Source of the DNA: Candidatus Hodarchaeota archaeon | GTDB taxonomy: Archaea; Asgardarchaeota; Heimdallarchaeia; Hodarchaeales; Hodarchaeaceae | DNA: 64,000 nt | Direction: 5' to 3' | Assembly: GCA_016840035.1 (NCBI GenBank) | Contig: JAEOTC010000154.1 | Coordinates: 1 to 64,000 of the forward strand | Shown here: positions 34,652-42,994 of the stretch, one piece after another | Position numbering within the stretch: position 1 is the first letter of the stretch | Layout: the number at the start of each line of letters is the position of its first letter | Position numbers and translations under genes: made by a program | Notes under the pieces: generated by a model | What the model was told of the DNA's origin: nothing | Seen by the model: only the letters and a program-made list of their open reading frames with translations | Databases searched by the model: none

Positions 34652-34854
34652 CTTTATTACTTCAATTAGATAGATATGAAGAGATTTCGAAGAATTATCT
34701 ATATCTATTCCTGAGATTTTCCCCTGAAAACCCCAGGGCTAGTATTGCCGTATAATTTGCTAGAATGTGGTGTGTGGGGTTCCTTTTCCCAGAAGTAAAG
34801 ATTAATAAATATACAAAATCTGTATTTAATTACGTAGTATTGGAGTGATATACA

Positions 34855-34959
34855 ATGCCTCGACCAGTTAAAAGAGTAGACACAGAATCAAAAGAAAAAG
34901 CAACGGAAGATGCAGAAAAGAATAAAGACACAGTTCCCATTTCGAAACATTATTCTTAA
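34855..34959 (+). CDS. Unannotated 34-aa peptide at the head of the JAB-E1-E2-E2 operon
   Basis: GGAGTGA RBS, then MPRPVKRVDTESKEKATEDAEKNKDTVPISKHYS*. Below the ORF-track size cutoff; 41 bp before the JAB gene. Confidence 0.7.
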   Translation: MPRPVKRVDTESKEKATEDAEKNKDTVPISKHYS

Positions 34960-35000
34960 CTTAGACTTTTATCTATTTTTAATCCACATAGGGGATTTAT

Positions 35001-35942
35001 TTGTTGTATTCGCATCAAGAGGAGTCCATTTTCATCCAAATTGATCAGAATACATATGATGAGATGATTAATGAAGGCCTTCTTTGGCCACAAATTGAAA
35101 CAGGTGGAATGCTATTCGGGAATATCATCGAAGAGGAACAGAATCTTGTCATCAAGATTCAAAGAACTTATATCCCTTCAAGTGAAGATTGCATACGTGA
35201 AGCTGCGTATTTTGAAATAGAACCTGAATTTGCAAAAATGATTCTCTCTCAGGAGAGTCTTAAGTATTTGGGCAACTGGCACAAACATCCTGGATATGGG
35301 GGGCCTTCTCAAGGTGATCGAAGGCAAATTCAAGATTTTTTTGGGAATAATCCCCATCTAGATTTTGTTTTAACATTTATCCTTAACTTCCATTCCGATG
35401 CTTTTATTGAACCTATAATTGAGACATATTTTCGGACAGATGAGAATCTAAACTCGGGCCATTCATTTCTAACTCGCTATATCCCTCAAAGCAATCTCAT
35501 ATTCATTCCTTCACAATTAGATGAGCCTAAACCAATAATCCAAACCAGTGGTATTCCAAATGCATTAATATCTCGAATAAAACAAGAACTTGTAAATCTT
35601 TTTGATCATCTTTCTTCCATTGAAGAAATCCAAGAATTTCCTGGGCAAACTCCCGATGAGAAAGTTATTTCCTTTCCCTATACGGTTTTAATTCAGCAAG
35701 AAAAAGTAAACATTTTAATACTGATCTCATTTCCTCCTGAATTTCCTAAAGGAAAAATATATTTTGATATCTCCTCAGAGGATATGTCTAAAGACATTAC
35801 ATTTAAGACTCATCCAGCAGAGACGTTAACCGATCTAGAACTTGTGAGTCCATTCTTAGAAGTGCTTAAATCTGATATCGAGCATGATATCCCAGTGCTA
35901 TTGGAAAAACCTCTCTGGAGAGTTATGCGAGAGAAACTGTGA
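35001..35942 (+). CDS. JAB/MPN+ (JAMM) metalloprotease with C-terminal E2/RWD-like domain
   Basis: IETGGMLFG...WHKHPGYGGPSQGD; C-terminal RIKQELVNL...ISFPPEFPKG. Confidence 0.85.
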   Translation: MLYSHQEESIFIQIDQNTYDEMINEGLLWPQIETGGMLFGNIIEEEQNLVIKIQRTYIPSSEDCIREAAYFEIEPEFAKMILSQESLKYLGNWHKHPGYGGPSQGDRRQIQDFFGNNPHLDFVLTFILNFHSDAFIEPIIETYFRTDENLNSGHSFLTRYIPQSNLIFIPSQLDEPKPIIQTSGIPNALISRIKQELVNLFDHLSSIEEIQEFPGQTPDEKVISFPYTVLIQQEKVNILILISFPPEFPKGKIYFDISSEDMSKDITFKTHPAETLTDLELVSPFLEVLKSDIEHDIPVLLEKPLWRVMREKL

Positions 35943-37189
35943 ATAAAATGAAATTCTTACTTTACCCAGAACTGGAGACTGAATTAGCTAATCTTCCGCT
36001 CAAGGAAAAGATTTTTCCATTATTTGGAAGAGTTTTTGATGATTTTACCGTATTTCACTTTGTTAGTATAACATCTGATATGAAATCTCTTCGACAAATT
36101 GGATATATCTCGAATAGGGAAACTATTACTGATTTTACACTTGATTTTCCATTCATTCACCTGATAGTTGATACAAAACGTCTTGAAGTTACGAAGATTG
36201 CCATCCATAAGAGTCAAGATGATATTGAAATTATAAGAGAATTTGATATTGAAAAAGTAGATTTAAACAGATTATTTGTTCGAGTTGATAAAGCAGAAAC
36301 TCCATTAAATTTACTTCAAACAAAAACTGTAGCTATTATCGGTATGGGGTCGGGTGGTTCTTTACTCGCTTTATATCTTGCGAAAACGGGAGTTAAGAAA
36401 TTTATCCTCATCGATGATGATCGTCTTGAGGTTCACAATATCATTCGCCATATCTCTGACCTTTCACACCTCGGGAGATTTAAGACTAAGGTAGTGGAAG
36501 AATATATTGGTGCAAGAATACCAGATATTGAAATTCAAACCCTAGAACAAAAATTCGTGATACATACTCGAAAAGATGCAGAGTTTTTTTTGAATTTACT
36601 CTCCGATGTGAATCTGCTAATTGCGGTTTCAGGAGAACACGATGTTAATTTTGCTATAAATGATTTTGTACACATTAATAACTTAACCTTACCAGTTATT
36701 TATGCTGGTACATTTGATGGGGTGAAAGGGGGCTTAATGTTTAAAGTGGATCCACGGAAAGATGATATCTGCTATCATTGTGTATATGCCGATTCTTTTG
36801 CTTATCCCTTGACAGACAAAGAGTTAAAAAGCGATATTCCGACAACTACTGAGTTAGAAAAGAAAATTGTTTACGACCGAACCATGCAGGAACAATTAGC
36901 ACAACCAGGATTGGGATTAGATATTGATAATTTGACGATTTTTCTTTCGAAATTCTGCATAGCTACTCTATTAGACGGACAAGAACACGGTTTATACCGT
37001 TTTCCTTTTAATTTTTATCTCTGGTATAATAGAAACGTATTCCAACCGGATTCAGATGAAATTAAGTTTGAAGGCCTTGAACTTCTCTATTATGAGGACT
37101 TAGAGAAAAATGCTGAATGCCCCTTCCATGGAGAGCAGGTTAAAGCAACTTTGAAGGACAGTGATGAAGGGAACTCCCCCTCATTATAG
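35939..37189 (+). CDS. ThiF/MoeB/E1-family adenylyltransferase
   Basis: IIGMGSGG, IDDDRLEVHNIIRH, GRFKT, CYHC...CPFH; GTGA overlap with the JAB gene. Confidence 0.9.
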   Translation: MNKMKFLLYPELETELANLPLKEKIFPLFGRVFDDFTVFHFVSITSDMKSLRQIGYISNRETITDFTLDFPFIHLIVDTKRLEVTKIAIHKSQDDIEIIREFDIEKVDLNRLFVRVDKAETPLNLLQTKTVAIIGMGSGGSLLALYLAKTGVKKFILIDDDRLEVHNIIRHISDLSHLGRFKTKVVEEYIGARIPDIEIQTLEQKFVIHTRKDAEFFLNLLSDVNLLIAVSGEHDVNFAINDFVHINNLTLPVIYAGTFDGVKGGLMFKVDPRKDDICYHCVYADSFAYPLTDKELKSDIPTTTELEKKIVYDRTMQEQLAQPGLGLDIDNLTIFLSKFCIATLLDGQEHGLYRFPFNFYLWYNRNVFQPDSDEIKFEGLELLYYEDLEKNAECPFHGEQVKATLKDSDEGNSPSL

Positions 37190-37212: not shown

Positions 37213-37647
37213 ATGTCACTTCGTGGGAATTTAATCGATAGGGAAATAGAAAAATTAAGCAAAATCTTTCCCGACATTCAAAAAAGAGACTTTCTACAAC
37301 TTAAGAATAAAAATAAGTGTGTTCAGGTTAGTTTTCTCACAACTGGGAAATATGCATGTGGGCATTTTGATGTTCTCATTGAGTTCCCATACAATTATCC
37401 AGTTGGTTCACCACTCGTCTGGGTTCAAAAACCCAAAATTCCTAAGAATACTCCACATGTATACGGGTGGGATAAAGAGGGACACGCAAGTATTTGTTAT
37501 CTCCGACCTAAGAAAGACTGGCGTTTAAACTATAGCTCATATGAAACGGCACTGATGGTAGAAATTTGGCTTAAAACTTATTGTAGATGGACTAAAACTA
37601 ATGTTTGGGATTGGCCAGAAGCAGGGGTACTTGATCATATATTTTGA
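37213..37647 (+). CDS. Prokaryotic E2/UBC-fold conjugating enzyme
   Basis: EFPYNYPVGSP, TPHVY, ICYL (Cys95), downstream W, W-rich C-terminus. Confidence 0.8.
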   Translation: MSLRGNLIDREIEKLSKIFPDIQKRDFLQLKNKNKCVQVSFLTTGKYACGHFDVLIEFPYNYPVGSPLVWVQKPKIPKNTPHVYGWDKEGHASICYLRPKKDWRLNYSSYETALMVEIWLKTYCRWTKTNVWDWPEAGVLDHIF

Positions 37648-37659
37648 GCTTAAAGATGG

Positions 37660-38073
37660 ATGAATTTAATGAGACGAACCGTCGAAAACGAATTACATGA
37701 ATTAAAGGGTGTATTTCCAGGTTTAACACGTAAGGATTTCTATTATTTAGACAATGGAAATATTGCGGTTCAAGTCAAGTATGCAACAACTGGACAGTAC
37801 GCCCACGGTACATTCACCGTGCTCATTGAATTTCCCCATAATTATCCGAACGCTCCTCCGCGAGCATGGATTATGGAACCAAATATTTCAAGTCGTACAC
37901 ACCACATATACGGTCGGGATGAATACGGACATACTGAAATCTGTTATCTTCGTCCTCAGAAAGACTGGCACTTCACATTTACCTCTTATGATGCTGCAAT
38001 CATGATTCAGACTTGGATTTGGGCTTATTGTCGATGGCGTAAGGTTGGTATTTGGGATTGGAAGGAAGCCTAG
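37660..38073 (+). CDS. Prokaryotic E2/UBC-fold conjugating enzyme (paralogue)
   Basis: EFPHNYPNAPP, THHIY, ICYL (Cys95); aligns without gaps to the upstream gene. Confidence 0.8.
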   Translation: MNLMRRTVENELHELKGVFPGLTRKDFYYLDNGNIAVQVKYATTGQYAHGTFTVLIEFPHNYPNAPPRAWIMEPNISSRTHHIYGRDEYGHTEICYLRPQKDWHFTFTSYDAAIMIQTWIWAYCRWRKVGIWDWKEA

Positions 38074-38217
38074 CTTATCATATACTGAGATTAGTATTCT
38101 TGATAGATAAATGACCTTTTGGTTTCATCTACCAAATTATTCTGCTATTTAAGTAAAAATAGAATTAAGGAAGTTTAAAATAACTAAGGGCATATTTTTA
38201 TTTCCTGAGGATTGCTG

Positions 38218-39069
38218 ATGAAGGAAAAACGTAAATTCGGAAAAATTATGACTACTACGATATTTCTTTTCTTAATTTTCAATGTGATTTATTCTCATCA
38301 AGTTGGTGCTTTCGATGCTTCTCATTTTCAAATTGGAATTAATATTGGTGACACCCATACTTTGGAAATTTACTATATGTACGCTCCAGACTCCCCATTA
38401 GAAAGCGGAGCAAAAATGTACTACAATGTCACTAATATTACTGTGGATACCTGTTATATTACAGAAACCATATTTTTTGCTAATGGTTCTTTATACCAGA
38501 TACAAGACTATAATGATTCTCGAAGTGCTATTAATATGCCATTTTTCTATACCACTATCAATGTTAGTCTTCTATATGAGAACTTTATGGCACCTGATTA
38601 TTTTGTCTCAGTTGATTCAGAATTTATTTACATAGAACAATATACTAATTCATCTGGACTCGTAACTGATGGAATTTATACTTTTCATGCAGCGACAGGA
38701 TGGCTATATTCCTATGTAATGACAATGACCAACGATGGGACTCTCATGATGGAGATAGATATGAGAGATATCAACTATGATGAACCAGTAACCACAACTA
38801 CAATACCGTTTACAACGACTACTGACCCAGAAACCTCAACTGAATATTCAACATCAACAACTGAATATCCGACAACAACAGTCGAGGAAACAACCACTAG
38901 TGATGCTGAGACAACAGAAGAACCCACATCTGACGATTCAGATACAACCAGTGAGGAGAAAACCACATCTTTACCCACTACAATCCCAAGTATAAGTCCA
39001 AGTTCAGGAATTGTCAGCCTAGTAGTCATTGGAATCTTAGGTTTTGTTAATAGAAGAAAGAGAGGATAA
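38218..39069 (+). CDS. Secreted/surface protein with Thr/Ser-rich stalk and C-terminal anchor
   Basis: Signal peptide, T/S/E-rich linker, SPSSG + TM + RRKRG. Confidence 0.78.
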   Translation: MKEKRKFGKIMTTTIFLFLIFNVIYSHQVGAFDASHFQIGINIGDTHTLEIYYMYAPDSPLESGAKMYYNVTNITVDTCYITETIFFANGSLYQIQDYNDSRSAINMPFFYTTINVSLLYENFMAPDYFVSVDSEFIYIEQYTNSSGLVTDGIYTFHAATGWLYSYVMTMTNDGTLMMEIDMRDINYDEPVTTTTIPFTTTTDPETSTEYSTSTTEYPTTTVEETTTSDAETTEEPTSDDSDTTSEEKTTSLPTTIPSISPSSGIVSLVVIGILGFVNRRKRG

Positions 39070-39255: not shown

Positions 39256-40215
39256 ATGAATATCCAAGAAGCTGTTGAAGCTTGTGATTCAATTTTAACC
39301 GAGATTAAGAAATTTATTATCGGGAAAGATGATGTTTTAAAGCATGTTATGTTGTGTTTACTCGCAGATGGTCATATTCTATTTGAAGATTATCCAGGAT
39401 TAGCTAAAACAATGATTTCTAGATCATTTGCTTCTGTTCTTGGATGTGACTTTAATAGAATCCAATTCACCCCAGATCTACTCCCTGCTGATCTTACTGG
39501 ATCTGAAATTTACAATCAAAAATCAAACGACTTTGAATTTAAACCAGGTCCCTTGTTCGCTGATATTATATTAGCAGATGAAATTAATCGCGCTACTCCT
39601 AAGACTCAAAGTGCCCTATTAGAAGCAATGGGAGAATATCAAGTTTCTATTGGTGGTAAGACATATGAACTGATCAGCACGGAAAAACCATTTTTAGTAA
39701 TCGCAACGCAAAATCCACTAGAGTTAGAGGGAACTTTTGCTCTTCCTGAGGCTCAAGTTGATCGATTTCTAGCTAAAGTCAGAGTAGGCTATCCTTCCAA
39801 ATCAGACGAGGCAAAAATCCTTACTAATAGAATAAATCGGAAACAAAAGTTATTTTCATTACCACAAATTATAACGAAGAAAACCTTTCGAGAAATGCAG
39901 AAAGCAGTTGAGATTATTTCCGTATCTGATGAATTGAAGGATTATATTGTTGATATCGTTAATTATACTCGACACGCTCCACAAGTTCGAGTAGGAGCTT
40001 CTCCAAGAGGATCTCTAGATCTAATGTCTTTAGCACGTGCAAACGCGTTACTAGATGGTCGTGACTACGTTATACCGCAGGATGTTAAAGAGTTAGCTTC
40101 GCTCACATTATCTCATAGAATTATTTTGGATGTTGGATCTTATATCGCAGGTGCATCGTCTGAAGAGATAATTACAAGGATTTTAACGAAAGTTAAGGCT
40201 CCTAGGAAAGAATAA
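39256..40215 (+). CDS. moxR: MoxR-family AAA+ ATPase
   Basis: EDYPGLAKT, RIQFTPDLLPAD, ADEINRA, ATQNPLELEGTFALPEAQVDRF, GASPR. Confidence 0.95.
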   Translation: MNIQEAVEACDSILTEIKKFIIGKDDVLKHVMLCLLADGHILFEDYPGLAKTMISRSFASVLGCDFNRIQFTPDLLPADLTGSEIYNQKSNDFEFKPGPLFADIILADEINRATPKTQSALLEAMGEYQVSIGGKTYELISTEKPFLVIATQNPLELEGTFALPEAQVDRFLAKVRVGYPSKSDEAKILTNRINRKQKLFSLPQIITKKTFREMQKAVEIISVSDELKDYIVDIVNYTRHAPQVRVGASPRGSLDLMSLARANALLDGRDYVIPQDVKELASLTLSHRIILDVGSYIAGASSEEIITRILTKVKAPRKE

Positions 40216-40217
40216 GG

Positions 40218-41102
40218 TTGATTTCGAAAAGGATTAACCCCCTAAAACGAAAAGAGATTATTCTCATCGTATTCTTACTCTTTAGTTTAGCGATATTTCA
40301 AATTACAATGGAATTAATTCATGGGAGAAGACAGGAAAGTCCAATCTTGAGGGTAAATTTTCCTTTTTTCGAATTATTTGCAATAGCGATTCCACTTTTC
40401 CTTTTGATTTGGATTCTCTTCAAGCTAGAGTTTCCTTTCCGTATATTTAAGCCCCTTTCAATTTGGGCTGTCTCGATGTTACTTATAATTGTTGTGACTT
40501 CATTTCTAACCAATGCTAATTATTCCCCAGGAAATTTTAATCCTGGTAACACAACTACTATCGATACTACAATGATACCGCAGACCCTAACCAACCCCGA
40601 AACTGTCCTAACAGAATCCATTCCAGAACATATTGTACGGGATCCTCTTTTTAATTTGCCAGTTTTGCAGGATGTCCGGAATTTGTTACTTGTTTTTCTT
40701 ATTCTAATATCTACTATCATAATTATTCGAACAGAAAGGAGAAAATCTATTAAGCAGTCTAAAGAGTCAGAGTCGGCCGAAAACGGTCAAAAGATACCCA
40801 AGGAGTTTGAAGGAGGACTAAAAAATATAATTGAATGCTATTATCAGACTTCGGATCACTTAGAAGGTCAGGGCGCGGATGATTCAGATCATTTAACTCC
40901 AAAAGAATTTCAGAACGATGTAAGTATTAGGCAATTAACTTCTGAAAATGACTTCAATGATCTAACAAGCCTTTTTAATGAGGCTAAATTTTCAGAACAT
41001 GATATTTCAGCGGATTCAGTCCAAAGAGCTAAATTTCTCTCCCAGAAAATCATCTTTCAATCTTCTCACACAGAATTTGAACGAATGGAGGAAGAAGAAT
41101 GA
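40218..41102 (+). CDS. Membrane protein with DUF4129-like C-terminal domain
   Basis: N-terminal TMs; IIECYYQ..LTPKEF..LTSLFNEAKFSEH; MoxR context. Confidence 0.7.
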   Translation: MISKRINPLKRKEIILIVFLLFSLAIFQITMELIHGRRQESPILRVNFPFFELFAIAIPLFLLIWILFKLEFPFRIFKPLSIWAVSMLLIIVVTSFLTNANYSPGNFNPGNTTTIDTTMIPQTLTNPETVLTESIPEHIVRDPLFNLPVLQDVRNLLLVFLILISTIIIIRTERRKSIKQSKESESAENGQKIPKEFEGGLKNIIECYYQTSDHLEGQGADDSDHLTPKEFQNDVSIRQLTSENDFNDLTSLFNEAKFSEHDISADSVQRAKFLSQKIIFQSSHTEFERMEEEE

Positions 41103-41698
41103 CTTTAGTAGATGAACTTCTTAAATATCTGTTCTCATTCAATTTTTATATTTTTTTATGGATCCTATTAGTTATTCTGACCTTCTTTCTTCTAAGAAGG
41201 CTTCTTAGTGATTATAAACATAAAAAGATGGTTGAAAATTCAAGAAAACTTTTTGAATCTGAAAATCCCGATATGAGACTATCTGAAATCCAGTTTTATT
41301 TAGAGAGAGAAAACAATTTATTGGAAGAACGCTTTAAAAAGGGCAAAACAGAACTGAAAGATGATTCAGCAAAAAATAGTTTGTTGTTTCGAAGAATGTT
41401 TAGCCTCACAAACTCCCAAACTCCTAAGAGAGAGTTTGTTTTCCTATTAGCCTCTGAAATGAATAAAGTACGGAAAAGAAAAGAATTTTTGACTGATTCT
41501 CTAAGCTATGAGCTTAGTACATTTATTGATAATCCTGAAGACTGGGCTGAACGTTTTATTATCTTTACGCCTGACAAAAACCAACAAATCGCACAAAACC
41601 TCAAAGTCAGGGAGCTATTGCATGAATATCTGCATGAATTCATTGAAGTTATGCAAATCCCCGAATTAAAGTTCTTTTCACTATTAAAACAGTCGTGA
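41099..41698 (+). CDS. Single-TM hypothetical protein in the MoxR operon
   Basis: One N-terminal TM; ATGA overlap with the preceding gene. Confidence 0.65.
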   Translation: MTLVDELLKYLFSFNFYIFLWILLVILTFFLLRRLLSDYKHKKMVENSRKLFESENPDMRLSEIQFYLERENNLLEERFKKGKTELKDDSAKNSLLFRRMFSLTNSQTPKREFVFLLASEMNKVRKRKEFLTDSLSYELSTFIDNPEDWAERFIIFTPDKNQQIAQNLKVRELLHEYLHEFIEVMQIPELKFFSLLKQS

Positions 41699-41707
41699 GA
41701 TCATTCC

Positions 41708-42994
41708 ATGAACAATTACAAACAGATTTTATTCTTAACAACATCGTTACTAATAATAATTCTGCTTTCTTTGTTAACAGGAGTATCTGCTTTGACGGGA
41801 ATCGCTTTACCAGTTTTATGTTATATTTTCTTCTTTCTACTGACTGAAGAAGTGGATATTGAACCGATCAAAGTATCAAGAATAATTTCATCTGATCGGG
41901 GTACTATAGGAGAAGAGATTGAAGTAACTTTAGTTATCAATAATACCGGGTCTGCTATCCCTCTTCTTGAGATTGTAGATTTAATTGATGATAAATGCAC
42001 CATTTCTGCCGGTAGTAATCATTTGCAGGTTCAAATAGAGAAGAACCAGACTATTGAGCGGAAATATTCATTGAAACTCCACCATAGGGGGAGGTACAAG
42101 CTGGGCCCTATCTTTCTAAAGGGAAGTGATCTTTTCGACAAAAAAACCAGTTACAGAGGAATCGATTTGGTTCAAGAAGTCACGTGTGTTCCTACTTTTA
42201 TAAAACTTCAAACCCTCCCCATCTCGCGTGAGAAATTAGTTCCTCTGGGTGGATCAATTCCTTCGCGGATCTATAAAGGAAGAGATTTTGAATTTCAAGG
42301 AATTCGTCCGTATCAACCCAGTGATGAATTACGTTCAATTAATTGGAGGGTCACTGCAAAATATAATACATTAGCCACAAATGAGTATGCTCTAAATCAA
42401 CAATCCCATATCACCATATTACTTGATCACACCCTGTCAACAGAACATCTACTAGAAGTTTCAATAAAAGCAACACTTTCTATCGCAGAGTGGGGAATTC
42501 GACAGAGATCAAAAGTTGAACTGATTGCAATTGGAGATTATGTTATGTATCTTAAACCATCTGCGGATAAACGACAACTTCTATTAATTACTGAACGTTT
42601 GATTGATCTAGAGGCAATTTCTCCCCAATCAAAAGAGATATTAGAAGCCCGGATCAAAAACCGTGTTTATCACCGTCTGAATCATCCAGGAATGCTCTTC
42701 ATAATCTCTCCCCTTTTAGATAAGACAATCAATGCATCTTGTAAAAAGATTATAGAGTCACGAAATCGGGTAGTATGGGTCAACCCAACTCTCGATCGTG
42801 AATATGAACATATAAATTTGAAGAAATTATCCAAAAACCTCTCAAAGGAAAGAATTGAGGGATTTACGAATGTTCTTACTACACTTGTGAAAGTTAATAC
42901 GATCTTTGATTTTGAAAAAGTCCCTAGATTCAATTGGTATCCAGAAGGCCCTGATTATGCGTCCTTGGGATCTCTGAAAAAGGTGAGCGTTTAA
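41708..42994 (+). CDS. DUF58 (vWA-like) MoxR partner
   Basis: RGRYKLGP, EFQGIRPYQPSDELRSINWRVTAK, ILLD. Confidence 0.9.
   Translation: MNNYKQILFLTTSLLIIILLSLLTGVSALTGIALPVLCYIFFFLLTEEVDIEPIKVSRIISSDRGTIGEEIEVTLVINNTGSAIPLLEIVDLIDDKCTISAGSNHLQVQIEKNQTIERKYSLKLHHRGRYKLGPIFLKGSDLFDKKTSYRGIDLVQEVTCVPTFIKLQTLPISREKLVPLGGSIPSRIYKGRDFEFQGIRPYQPSDELRSINWRVTAKYNTLATNEYALNQQSHITILLDHTLSTEHLLEVSIKATLSIAEWGIRQRSKVELIAIGDYVMYLKPSADKRQLLLITERLIDLEAISPQSKEILEARIKNRVYHRLNHPGMLFIISPLLDKTINASCKKIIESRNRVVWVNPTLDREYEHINLKKLSKNLSKERIEGFTNVLTTLVKVNTIFDFEKVPRFNWYPEGPDYASLGSLKKVSV

Follow-up and report, generated by a model that had tools for sequence, protein, structure and literature searches.

A conserved 34-codon gene at the head of a ubiquitin-less E1/E2/JAB cassette in Hodarchaeales: a candidate peptide modifier

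The open reading frame (ORF) at positions 34855-34959 (+) of the window, i.e. of the whole 64,000-nucleotide stretch of DNA analysed here, is a genuine gene, with a conservation far above chance. It opens a series of five co-oriented, tightly packed genes that encode, in this order, the peptide, a JAB protease, an E1, and two E2-like proteins. We lean slightly towards the view that its product is the modifier of a ubiquitin-less conjugation cassette, in which an unfolded peptide, some 33 residues long, would take the place of ubiquitin. E1-E2 cascades are commonly viewed as machinery for ubiquitin-fold proteins, and the Hodarchaeales count among the known archaea most closely related to eukaryotes. 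The cassette would add a new variant to the E1/E2/JAB conjugation systems. Literature searches for the motifs of the peptide and for peptide-based E1/E2/JAB systems of Asgard archaea found no description of either the peptide or the operon, and public records of the peptide carry the name "hypothetical protein" at most, or no name.

A short gene upstream of JAB and E1

The peptide gene and its upstream signals are as follows.

34855..34959, + strand: peptide gene (copy P0001), 34 codons plus stop, ATG start
Layout of P0001: conserved N-terminal motif, then a charged middle, then a Lys-His-Tyr tail with a single trailing Ser
34842..34848, + strand: GGAGTGA, Shine-Dalgarno-like, 9 nt between GGAG and the peptide ATG
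34796..34810, + strand: BRE/TATA-type promoter-like motif TAAAGATTAATAAAT, 15 nt, 44 nt upstream of the peptide ATG

An earlier note on this DNA had proposed a 34-residue ORF at this place, and our translation matches it exactly. The GGAGTGA ribosome-binding site that it reported does stand ahead of the ATG, and the AT-rich element that it saw near 34801 is a portion of the 15-nt motif. As it also stated, P0001 has no Gly-Gly and its sole aromatic residue is Tyr33; its count of seven lysines has to be corrected to six (positions 6, 13, 15, 22, 24, and 31).

That the ORF is a real gene follows from its linkage to the enzyme genes, its codon-position bias, its dN/dS ratio, a peptide identity higher than that of the E1, and the conservation of GGAG and of TAAAGATTAATAAAT. 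The linkage, which had been anticipated from the window alone, is borne out across loci. Indeed, a homologous ORF of 32-35 residues lies directly upstream of JAB/E1 in every readable related locus (about 26 loci), including all 11 congeneric loci with upstream DNA, nine of nine metagenome loci, and L035, L037, L039, L041, and L042. The nine metagenome loci were added by a metagenome scan, and a JAB gene is found about 140 nt downstream of each of their peptide ORFs. When 1.84 billion representative proteins were searched with a profile, four matched, three of them being true members of the peptide family; two are full-length, and the third (P0005) keeps the first 18 residues only. The two full-length loci have an identical gene order, with an E1 of 50% identity in L037 and a JAB of 29% identity in L035. 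Four distant E1 homologues were also looked up (47, 44, 37, and 36% identical); at three of these loci a called gene of 32-35 residues precedes JAB, and at L040 a homologous ORF is present, uncalled. With an exact-sequence cluster look-up, the peptide set reached 48 distinct sequences, from loci with E1 identity down to 36% and JAB identity down to 29%. Because the loci stem from one genus and a few unplaced metagenome contigs, this comparison is deep but phylogenetically narrow.

The pattern of substitutions is that of a coding sequence. Among the 11 congeneric loci, the variable columns are distributed 8/4/30 over the three codon positions, so that 30 of 33 third positions vary, versus 12 of 66 first and second positions. 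When the copies are compared pair by pair, 654 codon differences are synonymous and 159 non-synonymous, and dN/dS is about 0.07 (Nei-Gojobori, 19 copies; mean pS 0.65, mean pN 0.08). The coding frame is open in all copies; the other reading frames are open in at most 6 of 19. Between genomes with E1 proteins of 53-69% identity, the peptides are 85-100% identical, and the first ten residues are unchanged at a locus where JAB is only 29% identical.

The upstream signals are conserved as well. In the 11 congeneric loci, TAAAGATTAATAAAT has 11 invariant positions out of 15, and each of the four others is conserved in at least 80% of the loci; the DNA around the motif, like that just past the peptide stop codon, is unalignable. 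A GGAG is kept 7-11 nt ahead of the start codon in 11/11 congeneric loci and likewise in the nine metagenome loci. The motif itself is found before the peptide gene in L038, and variant forms are found in L035 and L037. We infer that TAAAGATTAATAAAT is an archaeal BRE/TATA promoter.

Two side observations concern the same region. The 41 nt that separate the peptide gene from the JAB gene (34960-35000) are T-rich with one run of five T, and the corresponding spacers of other loci are likewise T-rich; this spacer could be a leaky archaeal terminator that raises the peptide transcript over the enzyme transcript, or, at 36% GC, may mean nothing. On the metagenome contig of L038 (L038:2017-2257), the promoter-like motif, GGAG, and about the first 18 peptide codons are followed by a frame unrelated to the family, which gives P0005. 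This partial gene adjoins an IS605 OrfB/TnpB-type gene, and the locus is either disrupted or an assembly chimera.

Enzymes and genomic setting of the cassette

Downstream of the peptide gene, the window encodes the following proteins.

35001..35942, + strand: JAB/JAMM metalloprotease, 313 aa; Pfam Prok-JAB 2.6e-07; PADLOC JAB (Cap3-type) 2e-11
JAB residues ~183-313 (~130 residues): extra C-terminal alpha/beta domain after the MPN domain
35939..37189, + strand: E1, ThiF-type adenylating enzyme, 416 aa; Pfam ThiF 6.6e-23
37213..37647, + strand: E2-like protein a, 144 aa; PADLOC E2 models 6.7e-08, weak Pfam UQ_con/RWD matches
37660..38073, + strand: E2-like protein b, 137 aa; PADLOC E2 3.8e-09; paralogue of E2-like protein a (47% identity)

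All four enzymes match PADLOC models built from Cap2 and Cap3 of type II CBASS. The earlier suggestion that they resemble the enzymes acting on CD-NTase tails is supported, with Cap2 nearest to the E1 and Cap3 matched by the JAB. The JAMM site of the latter is intact, since Glu33, His94, His96, Ser103, and Asp106 are invariant among 16 aligned sequences. Its structural model (pLDDT 86.6) aligns with CD-NTase-bound Cap3 (9ild_A; VIA-align Z 15.2, rmsd 2.4, 136 aligned residues) and also matches archaeal JAMM1 and Rpn11 homologues. The C-terminal domain has no Pfam match and drew nothing from the Atlas feature search. A wide VIA-align search returned weak matches for it (Z ~6-7), one of them (Z 5.9) to the Tsg101 UEV domain, and our impression is of a possibly E2/RWD-like domain.

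For the E1, whose true start may be an ATG located 9 nt downstream of 35939, the best PDB profile match is Cap2 (6.5e-14), followed by MccB, ThiF, and PaaA. Cap2 (7to3_A) is also the top Foldseek match. The adenylation domain aligns with UBA5, MoeB, and ThiF at Z 22-24, and full-length Atg7 structures align loosely across both E1 domains (model residues 1-403; rmsd 11-13 Å). The glycine-rich nucleotide loop (residues 135-140) and a zinc site made up of Cys278, Cys281, Cys394, and His397 are kept. These three cysteines are the only invariant ones in 62 E1 sequences, and none of the 62 shows a conserved cysteine in the crossover loop, between the two zinc-site motifs. The N-terminal domain, beta-rich and about 110 residues long, has no Pfam match; in the Atlas feature search it gave weak leads (0.75-0.79), among them Cap2 linker clusters (0.75-0.76).

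Both E2 paralogues occur in every complete congeneric locus, with His82 and Cys95 invariant in the two of them. Orthologues of E2-like protein a in L037 and L039-L042 bear a Pfam PF26395 (E2-CBASS) match. According to Pfam and PADLOC, the cassette contains no beta-grasp, CD-NTase, effector, MBL, or RING gene. Hence, with neither a beta-grasp protein nor a CD-NTase nor an MBL protein encoded there, the cassette offers no alternative substrate.

Among 400 Asgard species representatives, an E1 orthologue (E <=1e-40) is found only in the genus of the window, in 12 of 21 other genomes. E1 orthologues sit in metagenome-assembled genomes labelled Hodarchaeota, Heimdallarchaeota, or Hodarchaeum, which places the window in a Hodarchaeales (Asgard) genome, itself assembled from a metagenome. 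Apart from the closest relatives, the genes that flank the cassette vary between genomes, which indicates that the five genes move as a unit and form an accessory module. Such a patchy module fits a role in stress or defence. In the window, the surroundings are housekeeping-like, with genes for an alcohol dehydrogenase, pyruvate dehydrogenase E1 subunits, MsrA, and a MoxR/DUF58 cluster. Scans of viral contigs with the E1 and with the peptide gave no match.

The genome of the window has no second copy of the peptide. Canonical ubiquitin genes are found on other contigs of this genome (G000:C184:74250-75070 and G000:C3:2122-2901), and one ubiquitin-family match on C184 adjoins another ThiF-type E1 match. 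The peptide cassette would thus be a second, separate system.

Several features of individual loci may be added. A cluster downstream of the cassette (39256-42994 of the window) consists of genes for a MoxR AAA ATPase and for a DUF4129 protein, an ORF of unknown nature, and a gene for a DUF58 protein. In L021 and L023, both of which end before the DUF58 position, the first three of these come directly after the cassette. The cluster is absent after the cassette in other genomes, so that it is probably unrelated to it. Between the second E2 gene and MoxR, a 285-residue ORF (38212-39069) has no Pfam or PADLOC match and a relative in L022 only. At L013 (G015:C33:3130-3969), the E1 orthologue lies at a contig end and carries an in-frame TGA; it may be a pseudogene or reflect a sequencing error. 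The most distant cassettes, L039:3365-5883 and L040:1108-6400, are GC-richer, with E1 proteins 36-37% identical. They have three or four genes of the E2-CBASS type, distributed over both strands, together with one for a protein of 324-333 residues that clusters with the E2s; in L040, an IS240-type transposase gene separates the E2 genes from JAB.

The C-terminal tail and the role of the peptide

Across the divergent set, Met1, Pro2, Pro4, Asp9, Asp19, Ala20, Pro28, His32, and Tyr33 are invariant. His-Tyr is present in 48/48 variants; it is terminal in 31 of them, and in the other 17 it is followed by 1-13 unconserved residues. The trailing residues seen are Ser, Leu, Phe, Met, Arg-Asn, Gly-Asn, Lys-Asn, Ser-Lys, and extensions of four and of 13 residues. 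In one close clade, 33 core positions are nearly fixed and the trailing positions display six or more states. A fixed His-Tyr with variable residues behind it is the pattern of a precursor whose reactive C-terminus is laid bare by trimming. In ubiquitin-like precursors, variable extensions are removed in this manner, which exposes the reactive end.

In the window copy, the residue after His-Tyr is Ser. The earlier note had singled out the KHYS tail as a recognition element, defined by an aromatic residue at position -2 and a small last residue. The C-terminal tail does prove to be the most telling conserved feature; the recognition rule does not hold. Indeed, an aromatic-(S/A/G) end does not describe the family, which ends in Lys/Glu-His-Tyr with Tyr as the last conserved residue. 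Since trailing residues are unconserved and are lacking in 31/48 variants, the terminal Ser of P0001 is not a recognition motif. Chains built on the lysines had also been envisaged. No lysine is invariant, and the distant, GC-richer clade P0111-P0116 keeps two; lysine chains are thus rejected as a conserved property.

The modifier model that we favour would operate as follows. The operon, with the peptide gene first, would be transcribed from the conserved promoter-like motif. JAB would cut off the residues past His-Tyr (Ser in P0001), baring the Tyr carboxylate; this step is proposed because the trailing residues vary and because JAB enzymes act in this way in Bil and CBASS systems. A dimeric Cap2/Atg7-like E1 would then bind the Pro-(Ile/Val)-x-x-(Lys/Glu)-His-Tyr tail and adenylate the Tyr. 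As this E1 has no crossover-loop cysteine, the adenylate would probably be attacked directly by Cys95 of an E2 paralogue. The E2 would hand the peptide to an amine on a target, and JAB may also reverse the conjugation. The N-terminal motif (Met-Pro-x-Pro ... Val/Ile-Asp-Thr/Val) might be recognised by a receptor, or serve as a further docking site. Co-folding of the E1 dimer with ATP and peptide 1-33 gave scores of 0.48, 0.01, and 0.00 (three runs, without controls), which speak neither for nor against binding. Some points count against the model. Known E1 substrates end in Gly or Ala, and a C-terminal Tyr is bulky by comparison. Moreover, the E1 lacks a catalytic cysteine, as do its non-conjugating relatives ThiF, MoeB, MccB, and PaaA, which score almost like Cap2 in the PDB comparison.

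Other roles have to be weighed against this one. Short, first in its operon, and followed by a T-rich spacer, the ORF could be taken for a translated leader or upstream ORF that serves to adjust the expression of the enzymes, with a functionless product. We give this reading next to no credence, as the low dN/dS and nine invariant positions, kept while the enzymes are only 29-36% identical, reveal selection at the amino-acid level and exclude a functionless leader. It is unlikely, with a somewhat better claim, that the peptide is a regulator or subunit, either as a pseudo-substrate lodged in the E1 or JAB site or as an adaptor for a substrate encoded elsewhere. Strict linkage and strong conservation are equally expected of an obligate subunit or inhibitor, and the N-terminal motif is left without an assigned role by the modifier model. 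However, it is difficult to see why the residues behind an invariant His-Tyr should vary if the Tyr carboxylate did not need to be exposed, and no ORF of at least 60 codons in the window's genome ends in a peptide-type tail that could designate an alternative substrate.

The E1 could also chemically alter the C-terminal residues of a RiPP-type precursor in the manner of MccB or PaaA. The conserved N-terminus would then be the leader, JAB would be the peptidase that removes a leader or a follower, and the product would be a small molecule, secreted or used in signalling. Both MccB and PaaA rank among the best matches of the E1 in sequence and in structure, and the E1 has no catalytic cysteine; the peptide has the size typical of RiPP precursors, and its conserved N-terminus resembles a leader, its conserved C-terminal part a core. 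We nonetheless find this quite unlikely. Every complete cassette encodes two E2-fold proteins with an invariant Cys, for which no role in RiPP biosynthesis is known; genes for a transporter, for immunity, or for further tailoring do not travel with the cassette; the microcin C route requires a C-terminal Asn, absent here; and the closest matches of E1 and JAB are Cap2 and Cap3. In another variant, the peptide would be activated as in the modifier model and then joined to an amine that does not belong to a protein, for instance that of a lipid head group or of a small molecule. With an E1 of the Cap2/Atg7 kind, a parallel can be drawn to the formation of Atg8-PE by Atg7 and Atg3; full-length Atg7 aligns over model residues 1-403, with a large rmsd; and the cassette contains neither an E3 nor a target gene. 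Yet nothing specific favours such an acceptor and no lipid-related gene travels with the cassette, so that we regard it as very unlikely.

Relation to known systems

The cassette is most like type II CBASS conjugation, yet it departs from that system in three of its defining features. Type II CBASS (operon class 6b, Iyer et al. 2006) contains the nearest solved relatives of E1 and JAB, and the E2s are of CBASS type. In that system, Cap2, which unites E1 and E2, adenylates the disordered extreme C-terminus of a protein without a ubiquitin fold, Cap3, a JAB, cleaves exactly behind the last residue of the substrate, and the N-terminal linker domain of Cap2 positions the E2 (10.1101/2022.03.31.486616). 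The E1 cysteine of Cap2 is dispensable in vitro, where the E2 cysteine can take over (10.1101/2022.03.31.486616). Thus, the substrate is recognised by its disordered C-terminal tail and not by a beta-grasp fold, as we propose for the peptide. In contrast with type II CBASS, a CD-NTase and an effector are neither part of the peptide cassette nor do they travel with it; E1 and two E2s are encoded by separate genes and the E1 is devoid of the cysteine, instead of an E2-E1 fusion with a crossover-loop Cys; and JAB bears an extra C-terminal domain. Finally, the CBASS substrate is an enzyme ending in Gly or Ala, whereas the presumed substrate here is a free 33-residue peptide ending in Tyr, and the host is an Asgard archaeon.

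The Bil (BilABCD) and Bub systems are likewise compact operons encoding a modifier, an E1, an E2, and a JAB, in which JAB pre-processes the modifier, exposing its C-terminus, and removes conjugates. However, their modifiers are beta-grasp ubiquitin-like proteins ending in Gly, and their E1 and E2 come from other branches. The peptide lacks the features of a beta-grasp modifier: its core counts 32-35 residues in 48/48 variants, which is too short for a fold of about 70 residues or more, it has no Pfam match, and its tail contains no Gly. Concerning the operon classes 6a-6e, the partners are an MBL protein with a triple fusion (6a), a nucleotidyltransferase (6b), a metal-binding protein (6c), and beta-grasp ubiquitin-like proteins (6d, 6e) (PMC1779556). 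None of these partner genes is present in the cassette, which matches no class.

Pup of Actinobacteria, with which the peptide had been compared in the earlier note, is also a small, disordered modifier without a beta-grasp fold, the C-terminus of which may be processed before ligation. It ends in Gly-Gly-Gln/Glu, and its side-chain carboxylate is ligated by the glutamine-synthetase-like PafA, not by E1 and E2. Pup is about twice as long as the peptide, has another tail, and shares no sequence similarity with it. No Pfam Pup_ligase match was found in the window's genome (87% complete), and a control genome was matched. The peptide is therefore not regarded as a Pup: the tail differs, no PafA/Dop ligase is matched, and the chemistry would run via E1 and E2.

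Closer to the adenylation step, MccB/MccA and PaaA/PaaP associate a cysteine-less ThiF-type enzyme, endowed with an extra N-terminal domain, with a short ribosomal peptide. The peptide cassette also encodes a ThiF-type enzyme with an extra N-terminal domain, for which the Atlas leads are weak. The microcin C and pantocin systems have no E2 or JAB, and their clusters contain export and immunity genes. MccA has seven residues and ends in Asn. Atg7, which works with Atg3 and Atg10, differs from the present E1 by its crossover-loop cysteine and by its substrates, the beta-grasp proteins Atg8 and Atg12, and the match of its N-terminal domain is loose.

Taken a step further, the model would establish a third kind of protein modifier beside the ubiquitin fold and Pup, namely a fold-less peptide of 33 residues that is trimmed to Tyr by JAB, adenylated by a cysteine-less Atg7/Cap2-like E1, and handed on by dedicated E2s. 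We consider the chances of this evenly balanced. If it is true, an E1-E2 cascade needs a short tail only and no beta-grasp domain. Type II CBASS has already shown that the disordered tail of a large enzyme can replace the ubiquitin fold, and a free 33-residue peptide would take this to its minimum. The post-translational tags would gain a new class, in the archaeal lineage to which the eukaryotic ancestor is most often compared. The model would also account for "ubiquitin-less" E1/E2/JAB operons, the substrate of which would have been missed because its gene is too small for routine annotation. If the peptide is conjugated, trypsin would leave a His-Tyr remnant on lysine, of about +300.12 Da as calculated from standard residue masses, a signal that is searchable in existing sediment metaproteomes.

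Type II CBASS loci also occur in Asgard archaea. Two such loci, L015 and L016, encode E2-E1 fusions of 578 and 608 residues, and one of the two also has a Cap3-like JAB. Each has a protein upstream of Cap2 (L015:1-642 and L016:3109-3399); that of L015 has an OAS1_C (cGAS/OAS-family) match, and that of L016 is a 95-residue fragment without a Pfam match. Both end in basic-basic-aromatic-Gly, with five more residues in L016. The resemblance of these two tails to Lys-His-Tyr is a lead, seen in two examples, and suggests how a tail-only substrate may have arisen.
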